Shown here: piece after piece, positions 1,701 through 51,106 of the stretch | How the letters are laid out: each line of letters begins with the position of its first letter | Numbering within the stretch: position 1 is the stretch's first letter | Assembly: GCA_008632985.1 (NCBI GenBank) | Contig: QPGO01000060.1 | Location: forward strand, 186,001 to 250,000 | DNA length: 64,000 bases | Source: Psammoneis japonica | Lineage: Eukaryota | Direction of reading: 5' to 3' | The notes under the pieces: model-generated | Told to the model about the DNA's origin: nothing | Database searches by the model: none | The model's input: only the letters and a program-made list of their open reading frames with translations | Translations under genes and position numbers: made by a program

Positions 1701-1838
1701 TGGCTCCAGTTCATTGGGCACCAATGCATGCCCCCTTGACTGCATTGACTGCAAAAAAGATGCAAACTCGTGGTTCTGGGGGAAAGGGCCGTCCCTTGAA
1801 GACATCCTCTTCCAGGCAACCCCCATCCTCTCCCACTG

Positions 1839-4800
1839 TTGGTGTTCATGACAGTGGTGTTGTTCATGGTGGCACTCGCAGTCGCTCTCATTTTTCTGCT
1901 CATTGCTCCTCCCACTCCCACTCCAGCTCTAAGTCAAGGTCCACATCAAGGTCTCCCTGTTCACATCAATTGCGGTCATGTTGCTCCCGGTCAATTTCCT
2001 TTGTCTCGGTCTTGGTCCCAGTCCAGGTCCAGGGGCAGGTCTCACTCTCCACACTGCCACTGCTCTCTTTGTTGGACTGCCAGCAGGCATCAGTCTGGGT
2101 GTGGTCATGTGTCTGTCTCCTCCAGTTGGTCAGCTGCCGGGAGTTGTTCTGGTGGACACTCACACTCCCAATGTTGCCGTGTCTCTGTTGGCAGCACCAG
2201 GTCCCAGCCAGAGCCCTTTTTTGTGTCCCTGTCTCCTCGTGGACGTCATTGCTCAAGGAATTCCCGCCAATGCACCAAACACAGAAAGTTTTGCAGCAGG
2301 AGTTGCAGGAGTTGCAGTCCTGTTTCTCACCGCACCAGGTGTTCCTTGTCAAGGTCTTGCAGTGTTGACTCCACCTGTTCCAATGTCTTGGAAGCTCCTG
2401 TTTCCCATTGCACCAGGCCACACAAGTCCCGGTCCACCATGTCTTTGTTCCCAGCTTTGAATTGGATTCTTCAGACACCTCAGAACCTCCTGTGTCTCAC
2501 CGCACAAGGTCTTCCCTGGTCCGGTCTCCCAGTCTTGACTCCACCTCTTTGGTCACATCCAAACCTTCTCTTCAGCTTCAAGTGTCGTCTTCATCATCTG
2601 TCGGTGCACTGGCTAAAATGCCCAAGAGGAAAACTTTCACCTGTTCTGTCAAGACTTGCAAGGAGAAAGTTTTGCTGTCCAAGGCCTTGTTGAGGGAAAA
2701 GGCATTTAAGGAGGAGAGCATGTTCAACATTGTTTTTATTTTCAAAGAGGTCCACCCTGAGCACTTTGACGACAACTTTTCCAAGGACAAGCCAATCGAC
2801 AACCTTGGCCGGCTGTCTCTGAAGTGCCAAGAAAAATGTGTTCTTTGGTGTCATGTCACATTTCAGGCACCATTGCAGGTGTCTTCGCCTTGCAGAGCCA
2901 ACATTCCCCACCACCAAGACAATGCTGTGAACCTTGCTTTGGAACTTGGATCTGATGACACGTCTGCTGCGTGGTCATTCTATGACATTGACAGAGACCA
3001 TTCAAATGACTTCCTTGTGGTTGTCAATTCCTTCTGCCAACAACACCCAACACATCGGATTGACTGGAATCATTTGTGGGAACTCATCAAGAAACACCAT
3101 GCTAAACCAAAGGATGGAGAGTCTCAATGTTTGGAAACAGGGAAGACAGGAACACACCATCAGCCATGCAATCACTTTGCAGATTTTGGTTTGTGCACCA
3201 ACACAAGCACTGCGAGGAAGGGACACGCCAATGGTGTTGCATGGCCATGCAAACAGAAGGGCACAAAGGAAGCCATGCTGCTTTTTTTGATCATCTCTCA
3301 AATCGTGGACACTCTCCAACCCGAGTTCACTTCTAATCCTTGGGTTGATCCGGAACTTCCCAACCGTGCAGAGGATTTTGTTTGCCTTTTGCTGGGTGCA
3401 ACGCAAGAGATTAAGACCAAAGCCCTGTGCTGCCTCATCAACAGATTTGGTTGCTTCTCTGACTGCCACTCTGACCACCACAACAGCAACAAGGAACCCA
3501 TGGCACCCGTGCTGTCAGTCTCTGTGACAACTGATTTGGGAAATGACACAGAAAATGAGAGAAACGCCATTGCAAGACATTCCAGGTCATTGGTGGATGA
3601 CACTGCACGGCAGATCAAAATGACTTTGCCATTGACAACACTTGCCATTCAAACATGCCAGGACCTGCTGGATCATCTTAAGTGCGTCAATCCCAGTCTT
3701 CTTTTTGCCAACTTGGAAAAATTCAAGGGATGCACTGGGATTGATGCGCACCGAGTCGTGCGCAACATGGAGTTGACAGGCTGTCACCAGGTTTTCCTCC
3801 ACTTTGTCATTGCGCTCATTGACAAGTGTTCACTTGCACTGCCTCAAATTGTGTCTGTGCAAACATGCTTTGAGTTGCATCCGCACAAGTCCTGCTTTTT
3901 TGGGGCAGCTGCGCAATGGTCATGCTGTCTGTGTCTTGGTTCAAGCCACCCACCGATGCTTTTGGATTTGGGCATGCCATGCATGAAGCAATGGTTGACA
4001 TCAAGAATGGAAACCCAACAGGCATCCCATCGTTCGGCCAGGCCGGGGTTGCCCACAAGAGAGGAGTGGAATGAACGCAACTGCAAGAAACTTGGTGTGG
4101 TGATGGAAGTGTGGATGGACAACCCAAAGAAGCCACAAAACAAAGACATTGTCAGGGTTTACAAGAAAATTCTGAACAAGTTTTCTGCCTTTTTGCCACA
4201 ATGTGGTGATTTGTTTTTGAGTCATTCAATGGGCATTCAAGTGGAGGTCAGGATTTTGCCCTCATGGATCATTGATTGCTGCCACTGCAAAAAAGACAGT
4301 CTTCCTGACCGCGCCATGTTTGAGCAGCACCAACTCGGGCCACCCAGCGATGCAGAAATGTTTCGTTTGGCACAAACGCTCAAGGAAGTGTTTTCTGCAC
4401 AGTTCAACAATGGCCCATCTGCCACCGACACACACTTCACTCATTGGATTTGTCGAGAACCCACTTTGCAAGTTGTTTTTTGAATGTGGCTTGGCAGAAG
4501 GAAAGGGTCCCATTGTGATGTTTGCTTTGCTGGCATGACCCTGTCTCCATTTCGGGAAAAGGCCACCTTTGTGCATCATTTTGATGGATCTCCCATTACA
4601 AAACCACCTTCTGGGCAGCTTGATTGCATCTTTTCATTTCAAGAAAAAGGCACTGTCTATGAAACAAATTGTCAAAAGAGCCAAAGGAACTGGCGCCTCG
4701 TTTTGGAACAAGCACCACGGTCCTGTTGTCATCCCTTTCCCATTTCATTGCATGGAGGTTCTTTCAGATGCACCTGCTTGTCTCCCAGAGACTTTGAAGT

Positions 4801-6150
4801 GACACAATCCTCAAGATGAATCAATTTTGATTCACATGGACACAGACGCCAAGGTGGAACTGCAGTGTGTAAAAAAGCAATGCATGGATGCCCTCAGGGA
4901 TGCAACCAGACCTCGTTGCTTGAGGATGCGCAAGTAAAAATCTCATCTCATCCCATTACACCAACAGCTTGTGCACTTCCACAATGCACTGCAACCCAGC
5001 TCTCACAATTCTGTGGCAGCTGCCCACCAAGAAACCCTGTGTGTGTTTCTATGTGCGCTCTCGCACTGATGTCACCCTTCTCAGATGGCATTTTGCTGGG
5101 TCTCCCATGACCATGCTGGTCCTTTCCATCAATGATGTGCCTTTGTTTCAGCATGTTGAGCAATGTTGCTAAGTGGAGAACGATTGGCGTTGACTCCTTG
5201 TGGGTCATGTGCACATTGACTCTTTTTGTCATTTTCTGCAGATCCAAGAAATTTTCTAAATGGATTTCAGTGCAAATTCTGCGCACTTCAGCAAACCCCA
5301 ATGATGAATGTTTTGTCAGGTCTCCAAGCTTCTCACACCCACACACCCTTCCGTTTCCAATGACTCTCTTTGTTCCCATTGGCCAATCAAGTCCTTTGCT
5401 GCTTGTGGTGAAAGTGCTGCTTCTGTTGTGATCCTGACGAGTGTGAGTGTGAGCCTCCCTTTGGCAACAAGTGACTGCCATCCATTTGCTGCGCGCATCG
5501 GCATTTCTGCGCAAGACCCAGTGTGGTTTCCACATGTGAAAAATGTCTTTCCTGATGACTGAGAATCATCAAGCACTCCCATTTCTTGTCTCCCAGTCTT
5601 GGACAAACCCTCCCTCACTCACTGGCAAACCAAGCTCTCTGTTGCATGCAGCGATCTTTCTGTTGTTGAGCAACTGCCATCCATCAGCTGTGCATGTTGT
5701 TGAACAATCAAGTGCTCCTGTTTCTCATCTCCCAGTCCTGGACAAACTCTCTTTCACTTGCTGGCAAATCAAGCTCTCTGTTGCATGCAGCGATCTTTCC
5801 ATTGTTTCATTTCTTTGAGGTTTGAATGAGGTTTCCCACTTGATGAGCAACAGCCAGTGGTTTGGCTCTCTTCCTTTGACTTTCTTTGTGGCTCTCATGC
5901 AAATTTTTCCCAAATGCAACTGTCCTCTGTGGTGGTGGTGCAACCAACGTGTGTGTCACCAGCAATGCCGCAGCAAACTCCAAGTGTTGTTGTGCTCTCC
6001 TCACCAGCTGTTTCTGTCGAGCATCTCCTCAGGGAGATGCCGATTCAGGCTGGTCGCATGTGCTTCTGCTGCATCTCCAAGCAGGGTGCACTGGAAGTGT
6101 GGGTTGACCGGCACCGGTGTTGCTGGGCAAAGGTGCAACAGCACTTAAAA
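1839..6150 (+). pseudogene. Degraded long ORF of unknown function (RS-rich N-terminal part, 691-aa core at 2408-4483), probably TE-borne
   Basis: Consecutive + strand ORF fragments with protein-like composition but almost no Tyr and excess Cys/His. No motif recognised. Converges on the Ginger-like ORF. Confidence 0.4.
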
Positions 6151-6236
6151 TTGAGTTTGGTTTTTTTTGCAACCCAGCTCTCACAGGGTTGCCACAACCT
6201 GAGAAAAGTCCCTCAAGATTGCTCAAGGTGTGTGCT

Positions 6237-6332
6237 GTCACACATCACATTGCATCACATGACATGGCATTGCATCACATCGCATGACATGACATGATGC
6301 ATCACACGACATTGCATCATGTGACATGATGC
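6237..6332. repeat. Degenerate pentamer microsatellite (ATCAC/ATTGC/ATGAC/ATCGC)
   Basis: 5-bp periodicity visible directly; lies between the 3' ends of two convergent degraded ORFs. Confidence 0.75.
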
Positions 6333-9300
6333 CTGTTTCTCTCTTGTCCTGGTTTTGGGCTTTTGTCCACTCACAAAATCCGGAACAAGAACAAGCAGAA
6401 ACACATCCGGCCCTGCCGCTCTTGCGACAGCCACACTGTCTTGTGCATGCCCCATTTTTACAACTGCATCTCTGTCTGCCATGATTGGTTGTGTTGCCAG
6501 TCATTTGCATGTGATGTTGAACAGGAACAAGCTTTGCAACTCTTGATGGTTCAAACATGTTGTCAAGAATCCCCTGTCAACACTCAAGCGGCCTTTGATT
6601 CAGGGCTGTGTTTCTGCTGCGCACAGCAAATGAGTTGGCTGGTGTCCACTTGACTGACTTCTCCATGCCTTGAGCTGTGATCCTGTGCTCTGCAACAACT
6701 TGCACTGAAAACGAAGGGTGCTTCCTGCACTTAAATGCCATGCCAAGCAAACTGAGTGGATTTGCATGTGATCTCTCTCCAATGTCCATTCTAACTGATG
6801 CAAGGTTGCTGACCTTTGCTTGCACACTCCCCCATTGTGCATCTTGCACATTTTCCGTCCTTGTTGCTCCTGCAACGCCTTCCTTTTCTTTTCCATCACC
6901 TGGCATTGTTGTTGATGCTGCAAATGGACAGATTCTGCCAAGGAAATGGAACGGGCAGATGAATTGCCAAATGGAGATTCTCAGCCAAACCATCGTCAGC
7001 ATCGGCCAGTGATGCAGCACCACATGCCAAACCAAGCCCCCCTCTGTCATTGTCTGGACCAACAGCCAACTGTGAAAATGATGCCTCCTCTGTGTCTTTT
7101 TCTTTGCTTGTCTCATGAAGATGAGCTGCGGGTGACTCATGAATTGTGGCCAATGGTGGTTGAGCCAAGGCTGTCTTGTCGATTCCTGGCAATGATGTTT
7201 GAGCTGCAGCTGTGTGTTCTTCTTCTTGTTCCACACCACGTGTGGCTGCAGCTGGATTGGGGTCATCCTCCTCCTCCTGGTTGTCCTCTTCCAATGAGGA
7301 GGACGAGGAGGACGATGACTTGAGGAGTTGCCGCAAGCCTTCTTTGCTCATCCTGCTTCTGCAGATCAAAGCAGTCAGTTCCCTGTCCATGTTCTCCAAG
7401 GATGAAAAGGAGCCAGACCATTCCTGCTGACACATGGTCCAACTCCTGCGCACTGAGGTGGAAAGCATGCATCCATCACCAAAAATGTGTGGCAGCACAT
7501 CCTCCCAGCACATTGGGCATGTGCTCCCCATCTTGCTGGTTTTGTGCCAGTTGAGAAGACAATGCAGATGAATGACATGTTGGCAATCCAGAAGATTTTG
7601 TTCCATGGGGAATGTGTCACCGCAGCAAACACAACACAAGGCATCTGTTGCATTTGCCTCCTTTTTGCTTTTTATCATCGTCCGCATGTGCCACTGTTTG
7701 TGGCTGATCAGACAAAGAAGGGGACATTTCGTCCTCATCAGAGCCATCCAACATTAAAGTGAACACATCTTCACAAGTTTTCACGGTCAAAACATCAGCT
7801 GAGGCATGTTTTGTTGTCAACAACTGGCATTTGCGAACAAAAACACCATGGATTTGTGTGCAGGCAACATCTGACAGGTTGAAGGATCGATCGCAGCCCA
7901 AATGTGTCCAGCCGCAATCGGCCCACATTGGTGTCCATCCGATTGTTCCACTGAACTCTCCCCAAGCATCATCACCCATCCTTTGTGGTGATGTTGCTTC
8001 CTCCAATCCGTGCTGTTCAGTGTCTTGCACAACACAATTTTGAGACGACCACGACTTTCCAGTGGAACCAATCCACACCTGCACAACACGTTTGTAGCGT
8101 GAGACATCCAAGTGCTTGGATTGCAGTTCAGTCCTTTGCACACCGTCACAAGTTCATTTCAGACGTCAAAGAAAAGGGTGGCAAAATGATGACCAGTGTG
8201 AGCCACCGCAATCAAGGTGTCAACGCTGGGATCAAGAGCAATCAACTGATCTTCGTCTGTGACCTTGTTGGGACAGTTGCAACGAACGACCCTTGTGTTG
8301 GAGGGATGGATGTCATGAGCCAACAAAACGGCAAAGCTGGAAATGAAGTTGTGCTCCCACCAACAATTTGTGTTGACATTGAGACGGCAATGATCGTTGT
8401 CAAACGCACCGACAATTGCATTTCCCTTGGGACAGCAACTGCAGTGCAAGGTGGGACACAGACACCAAACCATCTGTTTGTCCAGCAGCTCATGTTGTTG
8501 AACCAAAACGGCCTGAGACAAAGCCTCCGAAAGTGTCATCTGATGCAGGCATTGTTCAAGCTTCATGTCCTTGATGGCCATGAACTTCCTTTGCTTGCGT
8601 TTGGCTTGGTTCAACACCTGCAGACAAGTGAGGCTGTTCAATTTTCTTTCTGCCTGCACCAATTGGAATGGTGATGCATCTGCAGCAGTCTTGGTGAGCA
8701 AACCCAAATCTGCTGCCGACCTTTGTGGGTCTTCCTCCTCCAACATGGACAAGAAATGCTGTCCAGGAACAGATTTGCTGGGGTCAGCCGATGGTTTTGA
8801 TTTGTCCTCACAAGGGTTTGGAAGTGCCGCTGGCTTCTTGTCATCATCAAAGTGATGGGGAACATTTCCCGCTGTCCATTCTCCACCAACAGACATTGGA
8901 ACAGCTGCTGGCTTCCTGTCATCCTCAAGGGGTTGCAAAACATGATTCCATTCTTCCCCGTCAGACACTGGAAGAGCTGCAGGCTCCTTGTCTTCCTCAA
9001 AGGGTTACAAAAGAGCCAATGGTTTCATTTTGTCATCAACTTTGTTGAGGAGTTGGCCTGACAATCCCGGCAATTTGTCAGGAGGGGTGGCTGGTTTGGG
9101 ACAACAAGCATCTCATGCGCCAATTTGGTTGGGGGACAATGCATTGTCAGCGTTGGCATCTGGTCCGCACTCTTGCATCATGGTCATTTTTTCTTTGCAC
9201 TGTTCACCAAGCACATTGACCATGTCTTTGACTGTGCTGCACTTGGACATCACCTTGTTGGTGGCCGTGATCATGGGTTCCATGTGCTCCATTCCAAACA

Positions 9301-11047
9301 CCAGCAAATGGGGTGATTGCTCATTGCGGCCTGTGCTTTTTGTCATGTTTGTGGCAGCCATTGCATCGGGATGACATGTCACCCAACTGGCAGTGGGGTC
9401 GCCGTCATCATGCCTCTCCTTGACAAGAGTGGCAATTGACTCTTTCAAGGAACCATTTGTCCTTTCCACAGAACCTTGATCCTGTGGAGTTCTTGCACGA
9501 CCGTGGACAGTTTGGATGGAAGGTTGAGTTTCCTTGAGTTTGTCAATGACTTCCTTGCCATGAACTTCTCCGCCATGATCAGATTGACACATGAGTGGAG
9601 GGGCCAAACACGCCGAAATGACAATGAAGCAAGGTGGCCATGTGCTTGGACTCTTTGCTTGGCGTGGGATGCGTCCATGACAACCTGGTAAAATGATCCT
9701 TCACAACAAGGAGCCACTTGTGCACAATCCCAAAAACATTGGTTTGGGGATCCTCCATGCAGTTGACATAATCTGCTTGCACCCTGTCACAAAAATGATG
9801 GGGCACTGTTGGACGAACGGCACCTTTGTGCTTTGGAACATGTGGCTGCTTCAAAGAACATTGCAGGCAAGTGTCAATGAAAGCCTTCACAATGCTTTGG
9901 GCAACATTAAAGTGCTTGTCCTTTGCAACAGCATGAGTGGATGCCACCTTCTTGTGACCGAACAATGAGTGGATTTGTTTGAGCATGTTGAAGCACATCA
10001 TCTGGCAAACAACTTGTTTGGGCATTTCCTCTTCTTTACGAAACAGCAATGAAGGACCCTCTTTGAGGATGTTCCGTGCAGCACTTGTCGTTCATGCAGT
10101 GCCACTTGGGACATTTGCGGTGCCACTGCTTTGCGTCAAGGCCTTTCTCAACGTCTCCCTTGTCCCACGTGATTGAGCAAGTGGAGGATGTGACCGTGCT
10201 CCTTTTCCGTCAAAACCTTGGATGTCTTGGCAGTGGAAGGACTGCCAACCTCATCCATGCCAAAAGCCTCCGCTGGAAAATGGCATTCATGATGATTCTC
10301 TTCTGTCATGGCTGAAAGTTTGTTGGGAGACAACAAAGCATTTTGCTCTCCGACGGATCGTTGTGACACCATTGACAAACAACCCGTTTTGCCAGACAGC
10401 CAAGTGGGGGTTGCACAGAAACAAACCATGGTTGTCAACAACAAAACAACACAAAGCGGTGGTGGTGGTGATGCCAATGAGAGGGGGTTCCATGAAAAGA
10501 GTGCACAAATTGAGATCATCGTGGGAGTCGTCGGATGAGTCAGAAGCGGGAATCTTCAATGTGGCAAAAACAAAAAGAGTGTTGCAAACTGCCCCCTGCA
10601 GAGAATTGCAGTTCTCCCCCCCGTCTTTGACAATGGATGCAAACTTTTTTCCTTGGACTTCAGATGAATGCAATGAGGACAATGATTGCAAAATGCACGA
10701 ACTGTGTTTGCAGCCATGTTGCCGCAATCATCGGACAAATGGCCGAATGTTGCTTTGATGGAACGGCAATGGCCTTCTGTCTCGTGAGCTTGCAGTGCAA
10801 TGTCAAAGCACATGAGTTCATGAATGACAAGTTTGTCCTTCGGAGGTTGGGCCTTTGTGTCTTTGCGACACATCAGCCCATTGCGGACAAAATGTTTCTT
10901 TGACATCTGGCTCCATTCAGGGTGCTTGCATCTCCATTGCTTGACGTCTTGGTGTGGTTCGGGCGAGCTTCCCCCCCCCACTTTCGTGACAGAATGCATC
11001 GTGTTCGAACAATGCACGATGTGATTGAGCAGACGATGCATCGTCAT
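6238..11047 (-). mobile_element. Degraded Ginger-like (retroviral-type integrase) DNA transposon with Ulp1-like protease, RING finger and Cys-cluster domains
   Basis: Two HHCC fingers (AHETEGH..CNHCPHC at 10556-11047; IHSLFGH..DTCLQC at 9579-10049). Integrase core (RVQAD, VVKDHFTR, QSDHGGE, GRARTPQDQGSVERTN). Ulp1-like motifs (GHHFA..FD, QSDGHQCGP, 7817-8968). RING CVCC..C.H..H..C...W..CPMC (6896-7747). Terminal CSC..C..CGC.K..C..C cluster (6238-6558). No RT and no LTR seen. Confidence 0.7.
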
Positions 11048-11377
11048 GTGTTTTCCAAACAGTGTGTGTGGACTGCATCACTCGGGAGAGCAAGCGCGGT
11101 TTTCGAAAATGAAAGGCAAGCATTTTTGAAAATGAGTGGGGGGGACTCTCAAGAATGGGCGTTTCCGAAAATCCATGAGTGCAAGTCACGTGCATTTTTA
11201 AGAATCGAATTTTAACAAGATTTTCCTGGAATCGAATTTTTGAGGGTGGGAAATCCCTTGTTTTCGGGGGAATTTTGGAAATTTCGTTGGAAAAACGGGT
11301 GAAATGAAACAGCATTTTTTGCGAATGCATGTGATTTGTGGGAAAATGCTCAAACGGCTTGAGCGCGAATTCTGAGA

Positions 11378-11569
11378 TCACCGTGCAAACAACACGACAA
11401 TGGCTGAAATGCCGTTCGTTGAACGCAATGGAGATGGGGAGGCCTCCAACTTTCTTCACAAGTTTGTTGCCCACATCAAACACACCCTGAAAAAAGTTGG
11501 AGGCTGCCCCACTAAGCTTTCGAGAACGAACGGCATTTCGGCCATTGTCGTGTTGTTTGCGCACGGTGA
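11378..11569. repeat. Nested inverted repeat (hairpin) upstream of the Ginger-like ORF
   Basis: 11378-11420 pairs with 11525-11569 (about 43 bp, near perfect). Inner arms GCCTCCAACTTT (11442-11453) and AAAGTTGGAGGC (11493-11504). Confidence 0.85.
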
Positions 11570-12176
11570 GCGGTGAGCGCCGAATGCGCTCGGATGTTTT
11601 TTCCACAGTTGCGCCACAAATGATTAAAAGATTGGTTGTTTTTGATGCTTTTTACAAATGTATGTCGAAAACACAAGGGGGTTCCCAGCCTTAAGAATTT
11701 TCGATTTTTAAAAATGCTGTGCACAGTGGCGCAAGGCCAACCCCAACCGAGTGAAAAAAGAAAATGAAAAAGATGAAATGGCTCGAAAAGCTCGAACTTA
11801 CCCAGATTTTCACCCTTGACTCTTTTTCAACTCGGCCGAAACGAAAAAAAAGAGTCCGACTCTTTTTTCACAAACCCGGAAGCGTGAAAAAAGAGAAAAG
11901 AGTGATGTGGGCCGCATGCTGTCATGCATTTTGTACATGCGTCTTGGTTTGCGTAGGACACCAGTGAAGCAATCCAAAGTTCGCCTCACGCACCGCATCA
12001 TCAAGTCGCCATGGCGGTCTGTGATTGTTTTTGATGACTTCTTTCAATGTCATGACTGCAGAAGCAACACCAATTGACAATTTGAAGTAGACATGACATG
12101 TCTCTTGAAGGAATTGGTGAACTGTGCAGCACTTCTTCCACAACAGACCTTTTGTCTTCAAAAGATGTTGCCGGTC

Positions 12177-12370
12177 TGACAGAATGCCGAAGGTCGACAG
12201 TGACAAAGGCATGAAAGACTCCCTAAAGTGCCAGGACTGTGACAACACGAGTGCTGGCAGATGAGAAAGTGAGAAGCAGATCTCAGAGAGATCTGCTCGT
12301 CTGTCTAAATGGTCTAGCCATCATCCGCATCCAGTCTGTCCATCATGCGACAGGCACAGATGGGCTGACA
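12177..12370 (-). repeat. 3' LTR of the Copia (heavily TpA-mutated copy)
   Basis: Aligns without gaps to 19188-19381 with 17 substitutions. Polypurine tract AGGGGAGGG on the minus strand immediately adjacent (12371-12379). Confidence 0.97.
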
Positions 12371-15300
12371 CCCTCCCCTGATCTGTGGTGTCTCAACACA
12401 GAGAACAGTGCAGATCAAACCAAAGAATGGGGGTGATGTGAGGAAAAAATAGAGAGACTGGACACAGGACACGACAAGTGTCCATGCCCAATGCGCCAAC
12501 AAACAAGAGGGCAATGCGCAGCAGGGAGGCCACCGCGGAAAAAAATGTCAACAGCAGTGTCCCATCATGCGTCGAGCGTGGCGAGCGTGCAGCACCCAGC
12601 CAAGGGCCTTGGCAAGGTCATCGCTGGGGTTGACAATGCCAGGAACATGTCTCGTGACAATCTTGCCCGCTTCCTTCCATTCTTGGATCACAAAAAACTG
12701 AGTCTCAATGTGACGGGATCGCTCAGTTGGGATCAAGTGATTGATCATCTTGATTGCCGATTCGTTGTCAATGTGCAACGGGGTTGGCTCCATCTGAGGG
12801 AAGCCCAGGTCTTGTAGAACGTGACGAAGGTGCAGGACATGCTTGGCAGCAGTTCCAGCAGCACAAAATTCAGCTTCCACAGAGCTTGCAGCGGTCACCG
12901 ATTGGGTCTTGCACCGAAAAGATGTGGCAGCACCAGCTAACATGCAAGCACAGCCAGTCGTAGAATGACGGTTGCGGAGGTCATTGCCATGAGCAGCATC
13001 CAAGAAAGCAACGAGTTGATGATCACATGCAGGATGAGGGAATGATGGCAAGGTCGGGTCTGGAGTGAGACGTTCGAAGGGACAGGCAGGTGGTTTGGAG
13101 TCTCGGGCAGGCTTCCTGCAGTTCAATTCCCAATGTTCAGTGCGTCAAAGGCACTTGCATGTTCCTTTGAGCGCGTCACAGTGAACCACAGCAGGACAGG
13201 TCGAGAGCTTGGAGAGAGCAGTGATGGCACACCCAACATCCAGTCGACAGACAACGTGCACATGCAACAATTCGCCAAGAAGAGTTCGGTGGCCGAAACC
13301 AGCAGCTTGTTGCAGTTCCGCACACTCCGGGGTTCCTTCAGCTGGGCCAAAAGTGTTGTGCAGTTCGCGAACAGAGTCAACAGGCAGTGGTGCAGCCTTG
13401 CAGTCGTCGTCAAGTTCCTCGTCCGTCGGTGTCGACCAACCATGCGAGGCACAAACCCGATCCACACAGCTGTGAACAGCAATGCCAATGGAATCATCGC
13501 ATTGATGAACATCCACACCATTGAATTCGTCAATCATGCCAAGATGCTTGAACGGCGGAGAGGTTTCCGATTCCAATTGGAGAGCTTTGCCAATCTTGTC
13601 ATAGATCTTGATCGCAATAGACTCTTCAGGACAAGCGAGAGAGAAATCATCAACCTGACGGAGGAGCAAGATCTTGTGTCCTTCAAAAGCAGCAGAGTGG
13701 ACACATTTGTCATGAGCAGTGTTGCGAAAAAGCAGGTTCACATCAGATGAAATGCCGTTGATGTGCGTCTCCCAGAGCACGCCGGCTTCTGGGTGTCCTT
13801 GAAGTGCATGTTGCATCGGGAGTGCCACGCTCCTGTCCAAGTCAATGCCAAACCGAGCCTTGCACCAGGTTGCGCATGCCTCGTCTGTGGCAACATGTGG
13901 GGTGTGACGGTTGTGGAGAGTGTGCGTGGGCATCACGAGCATCCCCACCAAAGACAGGATAGCTCATGGTCGCAGCAAGGGCAAAAAACATGCGTTGGAT
14001 AGGCTGCTCAACACAGGACGAGTACGTCGAGTAGAGTCGATGTAGTGTCGACGCAGCACGGGGAGATCCATCACAGCACTGTCGAGAGCGCCGTGCACCA
14101 TCATGCTTGAGGTCATGTTGCCAATGTGGACGAAGTACGATGGCATCCTTGGGTTGTTTAATCGGTGCACCAAACATCCCCAACTCATGGAACTGGCCAA
14201 GTTGTTTGAATTCACCTGCACGCCATTCAGGCCACGTGTCCAACTTCTTGAGGCGATGGCGGGTGAAAGCACTCTAGGCTTGTTCCTCTGGAGCAATGGC
14301 GTGAGATGAGATGGCACAGATGTTGACTGCACCATTGTCACAATCAACAAAGAACGGCGGAGGGACATCGTCATCGTCCGTTTCGGAGAAATCAATGTCG
14401 GGGTGGCGGATGGCAGCAACAGCACGTATGTCGGCGTTGGTGATTTCCGGAACATGCTCATCATCAGGATCAGGACTCGGTGCATGTGTGTTGTGTTCCA
14501 TCAGAGCACGTTGTAGGGCTTGAGAGTCCAGGCGACGTTCCGGCACGAATTCAATTTCAAAATGAGTCTTGCCAGAATCACAGACTTGCTGAAAACGTTT
14601 GACAGCCTCCTCTGCCGTGAACACAGGATGATCATCGATCGACACGACACATGCACCCTTGATCTTGTTGCGGGCAGCCTTCAAAGAAGAGAAAAGACGT
14701 GCAGCAGGAGAACCACGCTTGATGTCAGAGACAAATGCTCGCCGATGGAGATCGTCCGTAGCCAAGGAAAGTCCAAACGTGGGATCAGCAAATGGTCCCT
14801 TCATGGTACGCTCAATGATCTTGGCAAAAGGATTCCCATGAAAGTGGAACTCATCCATCGTGGTTTCTTCAGTCTCGGCAGGTAAAGCCTTGCCATCTTG
14901 AGCACGTTCCAAGTGAACCACATTCGGCAGAAGAGAGTCGTGGGGAAGATCATTCATGCCCTCATCGTAGCGAATGTGCTTGGCAAGCTTGACACGCGAT
15001 GTCTCAGTGTCACACCAAAGAATGTTCTTGGCAGTGTCCGGAAGACAGCCCAAGAATGTTCCCTTGCGAGAGACAGACCAAAATTTCGCTGGGCGGTGAT
15101 TCGACGCACGCACCCACACTCGACAACCAAACGTACGAAAGTTCTTGAAATCATCCTTCTGACCAGTGGCGAGAGCAATCGGAGCAGCAGGTTGTCCGTG
15201 GGATGGCACAGTGTTGTTGACTCGAATGAAATGATGAAAAGCATGGGGCCAGAATTTGATGGGCAAATCAGCACCGATTGGCATCGCCCGGATGGCATCA

Positions 15301-18300
15301 GCAACAGACAAATGACTGCGTTCCACTGGGCCACTCTGATTTGAAGCATCTTTTCCTGCAGGACGAATTGCACAATGAAAGTCATCCTCGAAGAGTCACC
15401 AAACTTCTGGGTTCTGATGCAACTCACCTCCTTGATCCACAAACACATTTGTCTGGACATTTTGGCGAGTGCTCTTCCAGAAAGTGGCGAATCCAATTCA
15501 AAGGGGTTGCCTTGGAGACACGAGTCGCACCATGGAGACGCTTCGTTTTATGATCACAAACGGCAATCCAACAAGTCTCGCCATTCAATCCAACACAGTC
15601 CTTGGTGCCTCCGAGTTCTTGGAGCGCAGGCCAGAGAAGGAAAAATCAATCGTAAGGCCTTGGCATGGTTGGGCAGCAGTAAGAGCAGTGTTCGGACCGG
15701 CAGGTTCCTTCGTCTGCTTGGCTCGGCATGCAGGGACAAGTGTCGAGAGGAGAAGTTCCGTGGGCAAACTTGGGGACGCCATCAACATGTTCATGGGCAT
15801 GACAAAGGCAGTGATCACTCGGATGACCAAGTCGCTGATGCCATAAAAGACGTTCCGTGTCGGCCTTGAGAGACTGGACAGGAATGTTCTTCTCAGCATG
15901 CTTCTCGAAAGGAACATCTTGACAGACACAGGGGATCAACTTGCGTTCATCACGAAGAGCTTCATGTTGGTGGGTGCGACAAGTCTCAATCACACACGCA
16001 GAGACCGCTTCACACTCATCGGCAAAAGAAGGATCAGCAGTCTTGAGGCGCTCGACAGATGCATCCAGTTCGTCGTTAGATTCCGGGAGAATGAGAGGGT
16101 GAGTAAAACATTTTCCATTGATCAATTTTCCATGAATGACAACATCCTGACTCTTGCGCAATCGGTGTCGTGCAACAAACTTGCAGGTGCCGAGATCATG
16201 GAACTTGAGAGTGCAATCGACATTGCAATCTGCGCGACGAGAACCATTTTGACGAAGGAGGAGTCGCTCATCGACCAACGTAGATTGGATCTGTGGGTGG
16301 CAGCATGCACGGACCTCAACACAGCCATCAGAGTTCTCTGCAGGGATGCGAAGATAGCCGAATCCAACTGGGACAGCTTGGTGGCCAAGGGCCGGGTTGA
16401 CGGCAAGGGGACAGGGATGGGATGGGGTGAAGTCTTGGCAGCGATGGAGGAGGTCACGGTCGCCTGCACACGCAACATCGGCACCAGTGTCCAACTGAGC
16501 ACAACGTTCATTCGGAGCAAAGTTTACCCCATTGACAGAACAAGTGGATCGCAGCAGTTCCGGCTCAGGTGAGTGATTCGCCTGGTGTGGATCGATCGGA
16601 GTGACACGAACAGAATTGACGGCAGCAAAACCGTCTTCAACAGCCATGTCATCATGGGTGAGATCAATGTGTTCCTCAAAAACTGGTGTTTCTGGGTCTT
16701 CCCTCCCCTGTTCCAAAGGATCCGGAACATGAGCAGCATCGACGGAGGCTTCTTGAGGAGCAGGGTCATCATCGGGCCAACGTGTTGGCATCAAATGACA
16801 TCTTCGTGGAGGTGGAAGGGGTGGCATCCATGTCAATCTGTGAGGAAAGAGGTGTTGCAGCGGCAGATGACGAGACGGTCAGCCCCTCTTTCAAGGTCAT
16901 CCCGCTGACATTGGTCTTGTCTCAGTGAGGAGATGACGGGCAGCGTCGGAGATCCGAAACTAGCTGCGACGGCCCGATTGAAAATCCGAGGGCTGAGTGC
17001 TAGACGGAGGCGGATTTTCAGGATTGTCATGATGAGGTGGGAGCAAACCTTGGGGTCCTTGGAACTCAGAAGCACGCATGGCTGCTTCCTGTTTTAAGAA
17101 TTGACAAAAACGGATGTGGAATCCCTTGGTGCACGGGTTGTTCTTCAGGACTGGACAGTCATCAAACAAATGCTCTCCGGAGCAGACAAGACATGGTTTC
17201 TTGGAGGCTTCATGTGGAGCAACTTTCAGTTTATAGACTGAAGCTGAGCACACATGGTGAGGGATTCGATCTTCATCCGCAGATGGGATCTCGAGTTCGT
17301 GCAATTCGTTGCAAAGAGTGTCAAAGGCATCCGGAGGTGGAGATTCTGCACCAGGATCTTCAGTGGTAGAGTCATCAACTGGTTCATGGAGGGGTGTCTC
17401 AGGGATCTGGAGAGAGTTGACATTGGCAGGTGTGCGTCGCGTAGAAGCATCTGCTTGATTCCATGTACGGCATGGGTTGGATTGCGTCGTACGAGTGGGA
17501 AGGGATGGGCCACCCGGTTGGCGGAGGAAATCAGAGAGAGTCTCGACAATCTGTGCATCCGTGTGCTTCTTCTGCACAGCTGGAGACTTCCGTTCATCTC
17601 TGGTGGCACGTGACAAGAACTTGGAGTGCTTGGTGTTCTTGACAAAGATCGTCATCTCCCGTGGATCGTTCAACGTAGAGTCCGCATCAAAAATGCAGGC
17701 ACGCAGCTGTGGGAAATCATTGAAGATCATGTGGCAGTCCGTTGATGATCCATTGCCTTGGACAGGACAGGAATCAACAAGTCCAGCAGCATCATGATCA
17801 AAGGCAGGGTGATTCTCGCAGACAATCTGCTTTAGAGCCTTGCATCCGTTGCCGCAGCACGATGCAACAATCCGATGACACTTGCCATTCTTGGGGAACA
17901 TGTCCGACTTGGAGAGGATTTTGTGGAGAGAACTCTGAGCTTCCTTGCAGTGGACGTACATGCGTTGAGGCAAGTCATCATCCTTGCCGTTGCCGATCTC
18001 AAAACCCTTCTCACCACCGTGATCCTCAGCAAAACACCACAGGGGATGTGCAGCAACCTGAATCAAAGGCATGACGTTGGAGATTTTGGCACCATGCTCG
18101 CATCCCAGGGGGAGAGTCGTCATGACATGCAGGAGGTTCTCTGAACAGCATTTTCTGATCAGGAGTCGAGCTCATGATGAAAAGGGTGCCATCGTCAAGG
18201 ATGATGCGATCGGATGCATCAACACAGTGACGGAATCCATGGTCGCAAGGGACGAGAGAGCTCTGAAGAGCAACTTTTCCGTCTTCTTTGCGGTCGTAGC

Positions 18301-19171
18301 ATGCACGAACGTCTGCAGGAAGTGTGTTCGGATTGAAGAGGCATTTCGATGTTGCGGAAGATGCAGCACTTCCAGATGTCTTGGCAGAAGCTGTAGAAGG
18401 CGGAGCATGGCTCGACGCGCATGTGTTGAGTGCAGTCACCAAGTCAGTCACAGTCAATGTAGCAGGTCCTGCAGGTTTCTGAGAAGAAGACGGAGGCTGC
18501 TGTTTCTTCTGGTGGGGCGCAAGAGAGAACTCGTTCCAATTGCGATAGTTCCGTGTCATGTCCGGATCAACACGCACATGTTGGGTAGATGTGACAATGA
18601 ACAGAGATTGTCCACCGTTCTGAAGATTCGTCTTGATCATCTTTGACAAGATCGGAGTCATCAGGCAGACTGGACGAGGCCTTTGAGGGTCAAGAAGTCT
18701 GAACGGGGCTTGATCCACAATTGTCTTGATTGACTCTACATCCGTGGGATCAGCTGTGTAAGGTGGAAACGCTTCATGGATGAAATGATCGCGAAGCATG
18801 TCCGCAAAATCGTTCTTGGGTTGTGCGTGCTCTGGATCGTCAAAAAATCGATCGAGATCAGTTGTGGAGTCTGCATGAACCGTTTTCAGGCACTGATGTA
18901 GATGTGGTGTCGTTGCATGTGCCTCAAATTCGCAGTGGATCTCTGCAATTGACGCAGGAACGGCTTTTGTGAGGTCGGGAGACGCCATGGTTTTAGTGGG
19001 TGGAGCCATTTTTGGTCATGCACGCGTAGAAATCTGGCATGTTTCTACGGTCGTGAAAAATGCCGGGAAAGCGAGACAAAAAGTTGTTGGAGCAGACGAT
19101 GAGGCTCGCTCGATCGGCTCACAAAACAAACGAGTCGAGACAGAAAGCTTGGCGCAGAGGTCTGTGGCACA

Positions 19172-19187
19172 GCGCATGGCCATAACC
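19172..19187 (-). promoter_or_regulatory. Primer-binding site, GGTTATGG type (internal initiator-tRNA-Met priming as in Copia/Ty5)
   Basis: GGTTATGGCCATGCGC directly follows the 5' LTR on the minus strand. Confidence 0.65.
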
Positions 19188-19381
19188 TGACAGAATACCG
19201 AAGGTCGATAGTGATAGAGGTGTGAAAGACTCCCTAAAGTACCAGGACTGTGATAACACGAGTGCTAGTAGATGAGAAAGTGAGAAGCAGATCTCAGAGA
19301 GATCTGCTCGTCTATCTAAATGGTCTAGCCATCATCCGTATCCAGTCTGTCCATCATACGATAGGTATAGATAGGCTGACA
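19188..19381 (-). repeat. 5' LTR of the Copia (largely unmutated copy)
   Basis: Pairs with 12177-12370 and retains 17 TpA. Confidence 0.97.
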
Positions 19382-19972
19382 CGGTCTTGATGTGCATCAT
19401 AGAAAGTCGACACATAAGGTCCGTAAAGTAGATCTGTATGACACAGAAATAACCGTACTGACTAATTTAGATACGAATTATTCAATGGTGCTATTCTTAT
19501 GTTGTTTGATTTTAGATTAGGGGCTCGAAATGGCCCGAGAAGTGCACAAAAACTTTCCACTTGACAACCACTTAAGTCACCCCATAAGCCTGTTGTATTT
19601 GCACTGAACAAAAAAAGAAATAGCACCCACAGACTAAGAAAAAATGGAGGTTTTAATGGTGTTATTCTTATTGTCATAAGGTAGAACTTCGATGCCGTTA
19701 TGGGCCGTCATCTTCATTGTCGTGTGAGGCCTCTCGCTTTGCTTATCATCAGCATGCCCAAGACACCCGGATATTTAGCTTTTTAATTTTCACGCCGGTT
19801 AGGTCACCAAAACGACAAAACGAAAAAAGATCCATTTTACTGTATTATCTTGTACATTGAACAAGATTGATCCTCGCCGTGTTGGCATTGTTCTCCAAAG
19901 TGGAAGATAGAGATTACAATATATTATATTCCTTTTTAGTTTGATTGCAATAAAGGAGTAGAGAGTACAAAC

Positions 19973-20575
19973 ATGTCTGCTGCAGCAAGCAAACCAACAG
20001 AGCTGCACTGCGTCCGTTGCCACGACACCTTTAATCCTGACGATCCGAACAATAATTCCTGCATCATTGAACATGACTATGAATCCTTCGACGGTTGTCG
20101 GAACGGAACCCAATGGTACACAGGAACACTACAATGCTGCGGCGCCGATTACAAATTCCATCGCTTTTGCAGTGACGACCAGGCCACTCCCAAGAATTGT
20201 TTCGAGGGGAAGCATACAACGAATGTGACGCAAGTGAACTATACCAAATCAACGATTGACATCTGCAACGAGAAGGAATGCGGTAAAGAATTGCATGTCG
20301 CCTCTAAAAAGGCACGCGAGGAGCAAATTGAGAGCAAGAAGCGTATGGAAGAAGCTGCAAAGGCGGAACGCAAGGAGAAAAAGTCAACCCAGCGGGCTCG
20401 TATGGTGGAGCTCCAGTCGAAGGGCAATAGTCGCGAGGCGAGGAGACTACGAGCGGAATCGCTGGGGATGGATATGGATAGTGATGAGCTGAATTCCGAT
20501 GTTGATCCCGAGGGTTGTGAGGAGTTTGATTATGCCAGCGATTCCAGTCTCGTTCCGCCGTGGGAGGATTATTGA
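19973..20575 (+). CDS. Hypothetical protein, Cys/His-motif N-terminus and charged coiled-coil/acidic C-terminus
   Basis: 200-aa ATG-started ORF with normal Tyr and TpA content, flanked by AT-rich DNA. Confidence 0.7.
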   Translation: MSAAASKPTELHCVRCHDTFNPDDPNNNSCIIEHDYESFDGCRNGTQWYTGTLQCCGADYKFHRFCSDDQATPKNCFEGKHTTNVTQVNYTKSTIDICNEKECGKELHVASKKAREEQIESKKRMEEAAKAERKEKKSTQRARMVELQSKGNSREARRLRAESLGMDMDSDELNSDVDPEGCEEFDYASDSSLVPPWEDY

Positions 20576-20889
20576 AAGAAGGTAGAAAGTGCACGTTAAT
20601 AAGTTTCAAAGTAGGAATTCTCAAAGTAGCATTGACATTTAATATTAAAGAAACGATGAGGTGTCAATGAACATAGGATGGATTGGTAGACGCATCATTC
20701 CGAACATTGTGTTTTATTCTACTTATCTGCATCACAAAGTTCAGTTTCAGTGGAAAAACTGACACCCCGTCCACGGCAAGCATGACAACGATTTCATGTA
20801 GCACATCCAATCGAATCTAATTTCTACACAGTAACATTACTTTTACTAAAATGGCTAACGTTTCTCTACTGTGGTGCCTTTCGCTCTTT

Positions 20890-21484
20890 CTAAAATGCCA
20901 GAGGTGAGGTTGCACTCTCACCGCGCAATAAGCGTTCTGTAGCTTCAATGCATTTGTGTTTGGCTTGGTTCACCTCGTAATCATCATAGGGCTTGCAAAG
21001 ATGGTAGAGACCACCCGTCAAGATGCCTATAAGGACACCGGCGAAAACACACCCAACCGAGATTCCAACCTTGTGCGATGGTTGCCACCAAAAGACGCGC
21101 GTCCTCTTGCCATTGCCCTCCGCCATCAGCTCGAAAACATGTTTGGGTCGACCTTCAGCAATATCAGAACTCTCCTCAATGACAATTTTATTGGGCTCCA
21201 GCTCGACAACCATAGTACAGGTTGGTAATTCTGCCGAATTTGAGGTCGCGCAAGACGCAAGCATATTGGGCACCGACCGTTCCGTTTCTACCATAATTGC
21301 AACTCCAAGAGGTCTCGAAGTTTTTGGGCCGGTATTTGAGAATGTCCATGGATGTCCGTACAAATACGTGCGTGTCGTGCATCGCAAACGAGACTTGATT
21401 CAAGGGACGATTTACCACAAACTCGTGATAGAGTTCTAGTCCCGACAGTGGCGGTTTGCGTTCTGACAAAGAAGAGGACGACAT
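20890..21484 (-). CDS. Hypothetical protein with C-terminal transmembrane segment, split over two frames (intron or frameshift); weak SRPBCC-like resemblance
   Basis: Overlapping ORFs 21188-21586 and 20890-21387 both look protein-like. Hydrophobic VGISVGCVFAGVLIGILTGGLY. Structure unresolved. Confidence 0.4.
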
Positions 21485-21651
21485 GTCGCTTTTAGAAATG
21501 TTATGGCTCAAAGGACGTTGTGGAGTATGCAACTTCCCGAAAAGAATGAGCCTGCTCGGCACGAACGAAATTGTGACCGTTTGCATGCCGAATCAATGAA
21601 GACCACGACTGGGGCTCTCAGTCACGCGTGATGTAAATGGCGTAGAAGTTC

Positions 21652-24600
21652 GAGGGGCATTAGACAAAATGCCAATTTCTGTTGCCACTGCAGGACTCAG
21701 CATGCGCGTTTTGTTGTTGCTTGCTCTGCCAGTCATCTCCTTTCATGACTGCTTCTCTTGCGTGCCACCCAATGTTGTGGAGAGAAAACACACCATGCAC
21801 AGAGAAATGCAAAAGGACATGGCAAAAAAGGCACCCATTTTTAAATCAAAGTCTCATGTGGGGTGAAATGTTGCAGTGTTGTCAGAGCAGCAGCTGGCTG
21901 TGCAGCAAAAAAAAGCTGAGATGGCCCACTCTAAGAGACCAAGAAGTCAACTGCCAATTGCAGAAACAATGTGCACCATTTTCTCACTTTTTTGTTCATG
22001 CAAAGTGCCCAGCTCACATGATTGCAAGTGTTTCCACACACACGCCAACGGGGCTGTTGCACCACAAGCTGGTCAAAATGGTTTCTGAACCTTTTGTTGT
22101 CCTTGCTGCTGCTGGCTCCTGCAGTGAGGAGTTGAGAGAGGCCAAGAAACTGTGCTGTTGCTCTGTGTGCACACTGGAGAGCCAAAAATTGCAGGCCATG
22201 GTTGACAGCATGCTGGGGTTCCATCTGATCAACAGTGCACAACAACCAAGCCATCTCATCCCCCGTTCCTTCATGTCTCACTGGAAAGCCCTCTGCTCCA
22301 ATCACATTGAAGCTGTCAGCACTGCAATGTTGAATGGGGTGGAGCATTCTGCCAATGACATTGAAGAAGATCTCCACTGGTGCCAAAGAGAGAGAGAGAC
22401 TCAGAAATGAGCTGAGGCGTGCAAAAAGAAAAGATTCCTTGTCCTGTGCCTGCCCAGGCTTTGATTTTGTATCTTCTTGGCTTGTGCCCATCTTGGTTTC
22501 ATGCCGATTTGAGTGAGATCATTTGTGGAGAGGCGAACGCCAAGAAACTCAAATGGCATCAGAAGAACTTTCCTTCTGGCACCACGTCATTTGCCTTGCC
22601 GCGGGATGATGCATCCTCAGCTCCTGATGATCTGCATGTCAAGATTGAGGGACTGACCATTCACATCCTCTGATGGGAATTGATCAGGCTTGGCATCTGC
22701 TTGCCATGCATTGACGGGTGTGCAGATGGAGAGATGATCCATCAACAGCTCAACATCAAAAGGGAGTGTTTGCCAACTCTAATCTTTGATGCAAGTGGCG
22801 CCACTGATTGGGGGATGTCCGTGCACTGCAAATGCATTAAATGTGGTTGTAAGTGCAGAGGCAATGATGCCAAGCTGCTTGAAAAGCTTCCAAGTCATCT
22901 CCAACTTTGTCACCCTGTGGATCTCTGCTGTGCCAACGCCAACCCATCTTTTCATTTGACATTGCCAACGACCCGATGTGTTGACCACTCCGTGCAGAAG
23001 TGCAGCAACAGTGATGACACAGCTGCCTTCTTACATCAACAATGAGGATGCAATTTTCTTGACAGAGAAGAGCGGCATTTTTTGCAGTCAACCAATGTGG
23101 GCAGCAATTCAACAACTCCGCTGTCAGCATGTGAGGACTGGATGGGTCAACACAGACCAACAGGACAAAAAACAAAAGGGACATGCACGATGCTGCACGT
23201 GAGTCAGATCTTGCCAAGACTGGTGTCAGTGTCAACATGCAGCACACCAGAGAAATCCAGTCAGTTGCTTGTCATGCAAGTGTCGCATCAGACCACACTT
23301 TTGATCAACTGAAAAATTGCAGAAACATGGATGGCAAGGGACTGTTCACCATGGCAAGTGAGACAGGGGAGATTGGAGTGGCAGCAGTTGTGCCAATGCT
23401 TGAAACAAAAGACTGTGCCCATGCCATGGAGCAATTTGCTGGATGTCCAAACATGAAACCTCGTGTTCACCACTTGGACACCTGGCCAAACAAAGAAGAA
23501 TTTTGGAAACAAATTTTTGGTCATGATGTTGCATGTCGGCTTGGCCTTTGGCACTGGACCAACAAAATTGTTCATGCTCTGCGGGCTGCTCATGTTGATT
23601 GTCATGCAGCTCCCCATGATTTGAAGGACTGTGTGCAATGCAATGACAAATCTGATGAGTTGTGTGCAGTTGATGCACTTGTCTTTGGGAGACTCAGGGG
23701 GAAGAAGAACACAAGGGAAGAAAATGAAGATGTCAAGAACAGCAAGAAATGGAAGAACTGCAACAAGTGCATTTGAAAGTGGGCTTGCCCTCCAGAAACT
23801 CAAAACAAAAATCTTGAGGCGTGGTTCAATTGCTGCAAGTGCACGTTGTCTCCTGGAGCAGCTGAAGCCGGTGGATGAGACATGACCCTGATTCTGGCAA
23901 GCTGCTTTTCACCAAAAACACCAAGTCGGCAGCAGAAAATGCAACAGCATTGGCTCATGGACTTGACAAGCCACTTGCACATCAAGAATTGCACCACATT
24001 GAGCACCCTTCAAAATGGTCAAAGTGCAAGCTAGACATGCACGTCACCACCACAGGCACCGAGTTAAAGCTGGAAAAATGCCATCACATCGTCGAGCATT
24101 TTGGGACACCGGTTCCAGAAGCACCCACATTGATGCTCTCTGTGTCTTGCTGGAACATGCAAATGTGACATGGAAATGAGAGAGCATCTCTGAGTGGATA
24201 ACATGATGGCTGACGAGCGTGCCAAGATTCTGTGTGCCTTTCGAGGCATCCCCATCTTTCTGGATCACAGCCTCCTTGACTGCAATGACAAGCTGGCCCA
24301 AAAAGCTGGAACTCAACATCCCCTGTCCATGAGAACATTGGAGAGCTGGTGCAGGACAATGGTGAGCAACAGTTTTTGGCTCACCCAAAGCAACTTGAAC
24401 ATTTGAGAGAGAGGAACTCAAGTCGAGGAAGGCACCCCCCCCCCCACTGGCACGACAGCAGCATCCTCCAAAAAAGATTCCGACAGATGCACGCGCAACA
24501 AGTGTGACACAAAAAATCCACATTCGACTCATTCCAACCCAGTGCCAATCATGGAGAACCCATGCAGAAGAAAATCCAAGTCACTGCAGCTGCCGTCTGA

Positions 24601-32986: not shown

Positions 32987-33023
<37 letters not shown>

Positions 33024-40306: not shown

Positions 40307-40488
40307 TGTAAGATACGAAACAAATACCTAAAGGAGTGCCACAGTCAATCGTAGCCACTCCAGACCAACAACACGGCAGCGACCGTGAGAGCCATCTTTA
40401 TGCAAGACATGAAACAAATGCCTAAAGGAGTGCCAGTCAATCGCAGGCACTCCAGACCACCAACACGGCAGAGACCATGAGAGCCATC
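40307..40488. repeat. About 90-bp tandem duplication of the C-terminus and 3' flank of the Cys-repeat gene
   Basis: 40307-40396 aligns with 40401-40488. Confidence 0.9.
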
Positions 40489-51050: not shown

Positions 51051-51106
51051 TGAACTGAATTCATTTGTTTTGGACTGAACAAATGCCAACATGCTGTCAC
51101 AAACAC

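Follow-up and report, generated by a model that had tools for sequence, protein, structure and literature searches.

Within the 64-kb stretch of DNA analysed here (the window), two copies of a 194-bp sequence lie some 7 kb apart and differ mainly at the dinucleotide TpA, which is nearly absent from one copy and retained in the other. What removed TpA from one copy and left its partner untouched, and how far through the window did the process reach? The reading that we favour, with a probability of about 0.7, is that the DNA concerned would have undergone domain-wide hypermutation specific to TpA after the insertion of a retrotransposon, through an enzyme directed to silenced chromatin, the likeliest chemistry being deamination of adenine by a deaminase of the ADAT/TadA type. 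The coordinates of the features involved are collected in Table 1.

Table 1. Features of the window discussed in the text, with positions counted from its first nucleotide
Feature	Position	Strand	Remarks
Target-site duplication CGGTC, left copy	12172-12176		Same 5-mer abuts outer ends of both LTRs
3' LTR of copia element, TpA-erased copy	12177-12370	-	TG...CA termini, 3 TA left
Internal region, degenerate Ty1/copia (gag, integrase, RT), frameshifted	12371-19187	-	Pfam and tblastn, 19 homologous polyproteins
Reverse-transcriptase segment	13148-13963	-	RVT_2 E=7e-5, under Pfam cut-off; 33-53% identity to homologues
Integrase C-terminal segment, search query	14277-15395	-	SH3_retrovirus E=1.9e-9
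5' LTR, unerased copy, 17 TA	19188-19381	-	Pairs with 12177-12370
Target-site duplication CGGTC, right copy	19382-19386		5-mer identical to left copy
TpA-erased domain	1001-19050		0-9 TA per 500 bp
TpA-erased, CpG-poor domain	21501-25000
TpA-erased domain with tandem duplication (32136-33634 / 33672-35223)	32501-35000
TpA-erased stretch	40501-42000		0-9 TA per 500 bp
Oldest-looking erased domain	45501-59000		TA 0-8 per 500 bp
TA-rich stretch, 18 TA>CA/TG changes in run X1	20152-21838

The copia element and its two LTRs

The sequence at 12176-12371 was found to pair with a single partner in the window, at 19187-19382, with 91.3% identity over 196 bp. Both copies start with TG and end with CA, and a perfect 5-bp duplication flanks the whole unit; they are therefore the two LTRs of one minus-strand insertion, a degenerate Ty1/copia element. 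As LTRs of a single insertion, the two copies were identical when the element inserted, hence every difference between them arose later and in place. The internal region of the element yielded Pfam matches to RVT_2, SH3_retrovirus and gag_pre-integrs, all on the minus strand, and could be aligned by tblastn to public Ty1/copia polyproteins over most of its length. TpA is nearly gone from this region up to about position 19050, and its frame 0 contains 0.5% Tyr, 4.5% His and 5% Cys.

Alignment of the two LTRs over 194 positions revealed 17 differences, all of which were transitions. At 14 of these the 5' LTR reads TA against CA (8 sites) or TG (6 sites) in the 3' LTR, the TA state being found in the same (5') copy in all 14 cases. 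Two further differences form a single dinucleotide, at 12210-12211, that reads CA in one LTR and TG in the other, whilst position 12206 is the lone A/G difference outside TA. The tally of TpA transitions is 14 of 17, or 15-16 if the CA/TG dinucleotide is included, and the chance of at least 14 of 17 transitions falling on the 34 TA positions among the 194 is P = 1e-8. Re-alignment reproduced exactly the counts that the first-pass annotation had reported for this pair: a purine precedes all 8 TA>CA sites and a pyrimidine follows 4 of the 6 TA>TG sites (the exceptions being CTAGT and ATAGG), so that the mutated strand had TAY at 12 of the 14 sites. The three TpA common to both LTRs are, as it had stated, CTAA, CTAA and CTAG, and the two motifs that it had described as kept in other duplicates of the window were located in both copies of each, CCTAAAG of the 40.4-kb duplicate at 40327 and 40421, and TCTAGA of the 33.9-kb duplicate at 32384 and 33923.

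One public run of the same organism (X1), taken as assembled contigs, was compared with positions 9000-28999 of the window; 40 of the 415 differences are listed. The copia family is multi-copy in this run, with a summed depth of approximately 2000-3600 against approximately 60 for single-copy DNA, and the depth on the flanks of the element was 645 (11001-11667) and 279 (19672-20338). An X1 contig with a depth of approximately 250 joins position 12171 straight to 19382, omitting the element together with one copy of the target duplication, and one contig from X2 also joins 12171 exactly to 19382. Since the flanks at 11.0-12.2 kb and 19.4-20.3 kb are multi-copy in depth, the target of the insertion was probably one copy of an older repeat, of which uninserted copies probably exist elsewhere.

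Direction and extent of the TpA loss

The differences between two copies are symmetric, in that TA>CA/TG and CA/TG>TA are indistinguishable, hence the direction of change was polarised independently. For this purpose the element was compared by tblastn with 19 of the 25 listed homologues of at least 900 residues, all normal in Tyr content (the other six were unused), and columns were regarded as conserved when covered by at least 6 homologues with at least 60% agreement, which gave 499 columns. At the 23 conserved Tyr columns the element reads Cys 10 times, His 8 times, Tyr and Trp twice each and Ser once, whilst conserved His was kept at 17 of 20 columns and conserved Cys at 8 of 11, with neither reading Tyr anywhere. 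All conserved residues other than Tyr were retained in 55-100% of their columns. Tyr had thus given way to Cys (TGY) or His (CAY), and His or Cys never to Tyr; the element has therefore lost TA.

At the level of sequence comparison, the direction is confirmed as TA>CA/TG, which amounts to A>G at TpA in one strand or the other. This direction, which the first-pass annotation had given, is borne out without recourse to the LTR pair by the replacement of Tyr, by the dinucleotide mass balance and by the one-way differences in X1 that are described below. The change is also symmetric between strands, with a TG:CA ratio of 6:8 between the LTRs and of 8:10 in X1; a transcription-strand bias was sought in the copia element and none was seen (Cys:His, 10:8). 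The opposite polarity, in which RIP-like C>T change at CpA would have struck the 19188 copy and its surroundings and the TA-rich state would be the mutated one, draws on the symmetry of two-copy differences, which give no direction by themselves, but deserves next to no credence, for it is conserved Tyr that has changed in the TA-poor element, and the TA-rich regions sit at the TA level of host genes (rho 0.5-0.7) against 0.04-0.15 in the TA-poor regions, where CA/TG stand at 1.7-2.1. The Tyr to Cys/His replacements at conserved columns refute this polarity, TpA having been removed and not made.

Across the whole window, the dinucleotide odds ratios were 0.28 for TA, 1.54 for CA, 1.49 for TG and 0.61 for CG. 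Counts of TA per 500 bp were bimodal at equal G+C, with 0-9 in the erased domains and mostly 10-35 elsewhere. In total, 218 TA were found in 39.0 kb of erased DNA versus 949 in 24.0 kb elsewhere, or 5.6 per kb in erased DNA against 39.5 per kb in neighbouring genes. Compared with normal DNA, erased DNA shows per kb a change of -34 in TA, -28 in CG and +61 in CA plus TG, hence the losses and the gain balance. Other duplicates, located inside erased domains, also contain dinucleotides at which one copy has CA and its partner TG: there are 16 between 32136-33634 and 33672-35223, five between 51106-51262 and 55300-55453, and five between 5568-5667 and 5707-5806, the pattern that independent hits on opposite strands of an ancestral TA or CG are expected to leave.

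The edges of the domains are sharper than 150 bp. That on the right of the first domain is placed at the inner end of the 5' LTR, between the TA at 19046 and the TA at 19183; the 5' LTR is itself wholly spared, whereas the 3' LTR, identical to it at insertion, is erased together with the DNA beyond. A boundary in this position suggests targeting in cis or by domain. Mobile-DNA content is clear in the case of the copia element; the other erased domains gave weak Pfam matches only (Integrase_H2C2, E=0.004; DDE_3, E=0.009), and their identity as transposons is drawn from these weak matches and from multi-copy depth in X1.

The TA-rich regions carry host genes, including those encoding a fucoxanthin chlorophyll a/c antenna protein, a cyclophilin, and FMO-like, EF-hand and lipase-FYVE proteins. 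The best matches of the antenna protein were diatom fucoxanthin chlorophyll a/c proteins (E=1.6e-51), names of green-lineage antenna proteins were absent from the 60 best matches shown, and the Atlas clusters nearest to it were commonest in Bacillariophyta. Several ORFs of 3 kb in the window are without introns. Judged mainly from this single antenna gene, the host seems to be an alga with chlorophyll a/c, probably a diatom, and is probably not the chlorarachniophyte Bigelowiella natans.

Some individual features of the erased DNA were also recorded. A host-like ORF of 399 residues on the minus strand (40440-41636) encodes a repeat protein that is rich in Cys and hydrophobic at its C-terminus, in a region with 0-5 TA per 500 bp and normal CG; it represents either a host gene that is naturally TA-poor or one that happened to fall within an erased patch. 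Inside the oldest-looking domain, a TA-poor Cation_ATPase_C fragment (57812-58399, plus strand, E=1e-10) and a match to DUF5898 (56355-56822, minus strand, E=1e-11) may be host-gene fragments or pseudogenes that were swept into it. The left end of the first domain is occupied by a tandem array (1191-1727) with a unit of roughly 120-180 bp and 71-77% identity. A frame on the plus strand at 2369-4480 is stop-free for 704 codons and has no Pfam match, and long overlapping open frames are present on both strands of the erased domains. Such frames are likely to be spurious ORFs, because TAA and TAG have been erased; gene prediction and transposon annotation can be misled by domains that have lost these stops along with Tyr codons.

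Recent change and the influence of neighbouring bases

The region 20152-22369 is represented in X1 by three contigs at single-copy depth, for which 24 of 25 differences are listed. The window is TA-rich here up to approximately 21.5 kb, and 18 of the 44 TA sites read CA or TG in X1, along with 3 of the 81 CG sites that read TG or CA. Three other differences are listed within 20152-21838, namely a transversion, a TG that reads CG in X1 and a T>C at TT; reverse changes (CA/TG>TA) were absent from the differences listed for 20152-22369. In the adjacent genic X1 contig (25343-28999), 5 of 3657 positions differ, and arithmetic from these figures (18/44 and 5/3657) puts the per-site divergence at TA sites at approximately 300 times that of the neighbouring genes. 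Given these 18 extra TA>CA/TG changes in X1 just outside an erased domain, the TpA process looks recent or ongoing, and another lineage of this organism appears to be losing the TpA of the stretch 20152-21838. The erased domains themselves are matched by independent X1 contigs at 98-99% identity, hence the TA-free state is no artefact of one assembly.

The influence of adjacent bases was assessed in several ways. In the LTR pair, mutation had struck 1 of 4 YTAR sites but all 13 of the TA sites in other contexts (Fisher p=0.006), and in X1 the mutated fractions were 5/9 for RTAY, 11/25 for sites that are TAY on one strand and 2/10 for YTAR. When TA sites of known ancestry from the LTRs and X1 were taken together, 3 of 14 YTAR sites had changed versus 29 of 47 others (stratified p=0.012), whilst X1 alone gave 11/43 TAY strand-sites against 7/45 TAR (p=0.30). 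Seven further YTAR events were found in the in-window duplicates. The choice of strand at one-strand TAY sites, expressed as TAY:TAR and tallied by hand from the LTR pair, the duplicates, the Tyr codons and X1, was 7:1 in the LTRs, 12:3 in the other in-window duplicates, 4:3 in Tyr codons following a pyrimidine (as Cys:His) and 7:5 in X1, giving 30:12 when pooled (p=0.008) and 23:11 without the LTRs (p=0.058).

The TpA that survive in erased DNA were also examined, with host genic DNA, not unmutated elements, as the baseline. Measured in this way, RTAY survivors in erased DNA stood at 0.054 of their density in normal DNA, one-strand sites at 0.13 and YTAR sites at 0.33 (odds ratio 3.2, p=7e-12), and the values for individual 4-mers ranged from 0.009 (ATAT) to 0.50 (TTAA). 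The predicted products RCAR plus YTGY were in excess by 20.1 per kb, versus 10.6 per kb for RTGR plus YCAY. The base 3' of the A was T in 8% of survivors in old domains and 11% in young ones, as opposed to 28% in normal DNA; in the old domains it was A in 48%, with C and G intermediate. A at +2 was enriched, at 49% and 41% of survivors versus 28% in normal DNA.

The neighbour effect is a moderate rate bias of roughly 2-3-fold, in which sites with a 3' T change fastest, those with C or G at an intermediate rate and those with a 3' A slowest; A at +2 is also protective. Neither of two simpler rules describes it. A strict TAY motif was rejected, since YTAR sites do mutate and two-thirds of YTAR are gone from erased DNA, as was a plain split between pyrimidine and purine at +1, since survivors are ordered T << C and G < A with the additional effect at +2. 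The first-pass annotation had named TAY as the target motif and regarded YTAR sites as surviving; the sign of that bias holds and persists in the larger samples of ancestral sites and survivors, but at a strength below that of a motif and without significance in X1 alone.

Mechanism, rival explanations and known systems

In the scheme that we propose, a Ty1/copia element inserted with two identical LTRs, after which nearly every TpA in the element body, in the 3' LTR and in the DNA to the left was turned into CpA or TpG. Both strands underwent this A:T>G:C transition at TpA equally often, and neither the 5' LTR nor the DNA on its right was affected. The agent would be an enzyme recruited to a silenced chromatin domain and not to sequence homology; targeting by position is preferred because once-identical LTRs 7 kb apart met opposite fates and because single-copy flanking DNA was affected. 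The two halves of the older repeat around the element also differ in fate. Homology-triggered RIP was rejected, given a spared 5' LTR, an erased 3' LTR and changes in DNA that is at single-copy depth in X1. The likeliest chemistry would be conversion of adenine to hypoxanthine in DNA, for which an ADAT/TadA-type deaminase is the candidate. The deaminases of tRNA A34 work next to U33, a setting that would agree with the need for a 5' T seen here; this need is absolute, whilst the 3' bias is real but modest.

An adenine and a thymine target would have the same outcome in the sequence, as A>G on one strand equals T>C on the other. A thymine at TpA, modified to 5hmU or 5fU or the like by an enzyme of TET/JBP type, could mispair with G and so yield T>C, and the strand-symmetric data, in which each A>G may be read as T>C and the neighbour bias equally as RTA>RCA, accommodate such a route. 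Nothing in the sequence prefers it to deamination of adenine, however, and we regard it as unlikely.

A route through methylation, in which N6-methyl A at TpA would be deaminated as 5mC is at CpG, both under a single system of silencing marks, appears to us less likely still. TA and CG, both palindromic YpR steps, do vanish in the same domains and both yield CA/TG. Only 0-7 CG remain per 500 bp between 47.5 and 55.5 kb, compared with about 25-35 in genes, and CpG loss is also evident at 2001-10000 and 22001-24000, inside TpA-erased domains; moreover, an old domain shows 7 CG-type differences from X1, in both directions, at about 30 CG sites (9931-10929), versus the 3 of 81 noted above for the newly affected stretch. 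Nonetheless, CG is normal in the copia body (12.4-19 kb), at 22-31 per 500 bp, although most of the TA there is gone, so that the losses of TA and of CG differ at least in their kinetics. CpG>TpG/CpA decay in the erased domains is hence slower than the loss of TA, or starts later.

Error-prone repair synthesis in methylated chromatin, of the kind carried out by polymerase eta (A>G at WA), would be compatible with A>G transitions that are limited to a chromatin domain. It also predicts AA>AG, however, and is very improbable, given that the LTR pair has one AA/AG difference against 14 at TA, and that, of the differences listed for 20152-21838, 18 lie at TA and a single T>C at TT, whilst AA shows no A>G. 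The first-pass annotation had put forward AA>AG as frequent as TA>TG as a sign of polymerase eta over a deaminase; AA>AG proved rare, at 1 of 17 differences in the LTR pair and none at AA among the 24 listed from X1.

We see scarcely any likelihood in ADAR-like editing of the transcript before reverse transcription, or in artefacts of assembly or base calling where bases are modified. A>G change with a preference for a 5' U is a trait of ADAR-like and ADAT-like enzymes, as also appears in the available part of a recent preprint (bioRxiv 10.64898/2026.01.13.699255), but changes made before integration would mark both LTRs alike and on one strand, whereas the LTRs observed here differ, and both strands as well as the flanks are affected; for the LTR differences, the anatomy of the element refutes editing before integration. 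Against an artefact stands the agreement of X1 contigs with the erased domains, in a run that itself differs from the assembly.

We know of no enzyme, identified in any eukaryote, that acts on the TpA of chromosomal DNA to turn A:T into G:C. Should the process prove to be enzyme-driven, it would be a natural conversion of this kind, proceeding within defined domains at several hundred times the background. As a second case, in a lineage that is probably diatom-like and often amenable to transformation, it would make the search for the enzyme testable, with LTR pairs as built-in clocks and 20152-21838 as a stretch caught mid-erasure.

Relatives of the element were sought with its integrase segment, which retrieved 2452 homologues at E<=1e-3. 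Among the best 150, 11 were without Tyr and 21 had under 1% Tyr, often with raised His plus Cys; the Tyr-poor group includes P0014, P0056, P0073, P0027, P0061 and P0035. Ten integrase homologues were looked up, nine of them Tyr-poor, and all originated from metagenome assemblies. When metagenomes were scanned with the integrase of the window, no relative turned up, and a scan with the Tyr-poor homologue P0027 returned a single locus of 2125 bp (L001) with an ordinary TA level (rho 0.46). TpA-erased relatives of the copia element may be common in environmental data.

Several known systems resemble the process in part. TadA and ADAT2-ADAT3 also convert A to I, which is read as G, beside a 5' U or T, and the substrate of TadA is UAC; unlike the present case, the normal substrate of these enzymes is RNA, and the 3' order found here (T, C and G, A) differs from the tRNA pattern. 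APOBEC3 and ADAR in animals likewise restrain retroelements by hypermutation of deaminase type, but they mark one strand of cDNA or RNA prior to integration, whereas integrated double-stranded DNA is altered here, on both strands and over time. Fungal RIP is similar in that a dinucleotide-specific transition hypermutation ruins transposons and leaves sharply bounded domains of odd composition. It differs in turning CpA into TpA, where TpA is removed here, and in its dependence on homology, where here once-identical LTRs diverge in fate and single-copy flanks are affected.

In the literature searched, a TpA-erasing signature was reported only for Bigelowiella natans (Mettrop et al., bioRxiv 10.64898/2026.01.13.699255). 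No report of a comparable signature in diatoms was found in that literature, and the available part of a mutation-accumulation paper on P. tricornutum (PMC6604790) contains none. According to the available part of the preprint, mutation-accumulation lines of B. natans acquired A>G/T>C changes almost exclusively, and only at TpA, at a rate approximately 1000-fold above background and in discrete regions, with a giant-virus insert and a virophage insert among them; TpA-depleted windows were clustered, and an ADAT2-like deaminase was proposed as the candidate. The words trinucleotide, context and flanking are absent from its main text, as available.

The window has in common with B. natans the A:T>G:C change at TpA that yields TpG or CpA (18 of the 24 X1 differences listed in 20152-21838) and the confinement of TA loss to discrete regions, with the densities given above. 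The two cases differ in that B. natans is a chlorarachniophyte, whereas the window contains a fucoxanthin chlorophyll a/c antenna gene with diatom best matches, and in that viral inserts were the measured targets there, whereas an LTR retrotransposon and its neighbourhood are affected here, with the LTR pair as an internal clock. Judged against the available part of the preprint, erasure is deeper here (rho 0.04-0.15 versus 0.45) and is accompanied by CpG decay in the same domains and by a flanking-base bias; the changes in B. natans arose de novo in cultured lines, whereas the recent changes described here come from a comparison between samples, one of them a run taken as contigs. The locus is a new, deeper and anatomically cleaner case of a phenomenon that has been described once, in another eukaryotic supergroup. 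We suggest, tentatively, that a stramenopile alga and a rhizarian may share a defence in which DNA bases are edited within targeted chromatin domains, a "reverse RIP" that would remove TpA and, at a slower pace, CpG. If so, it would be an old and widespread eukaryotic genome defence, its enzyme would edit adenine (or thymine) in double-stranded chromosomal DNA, and its action would spread in cis from silenced elements into adjacent DNA and halt at defined boundaries, of which the inner end of a 5' LTR would be one.
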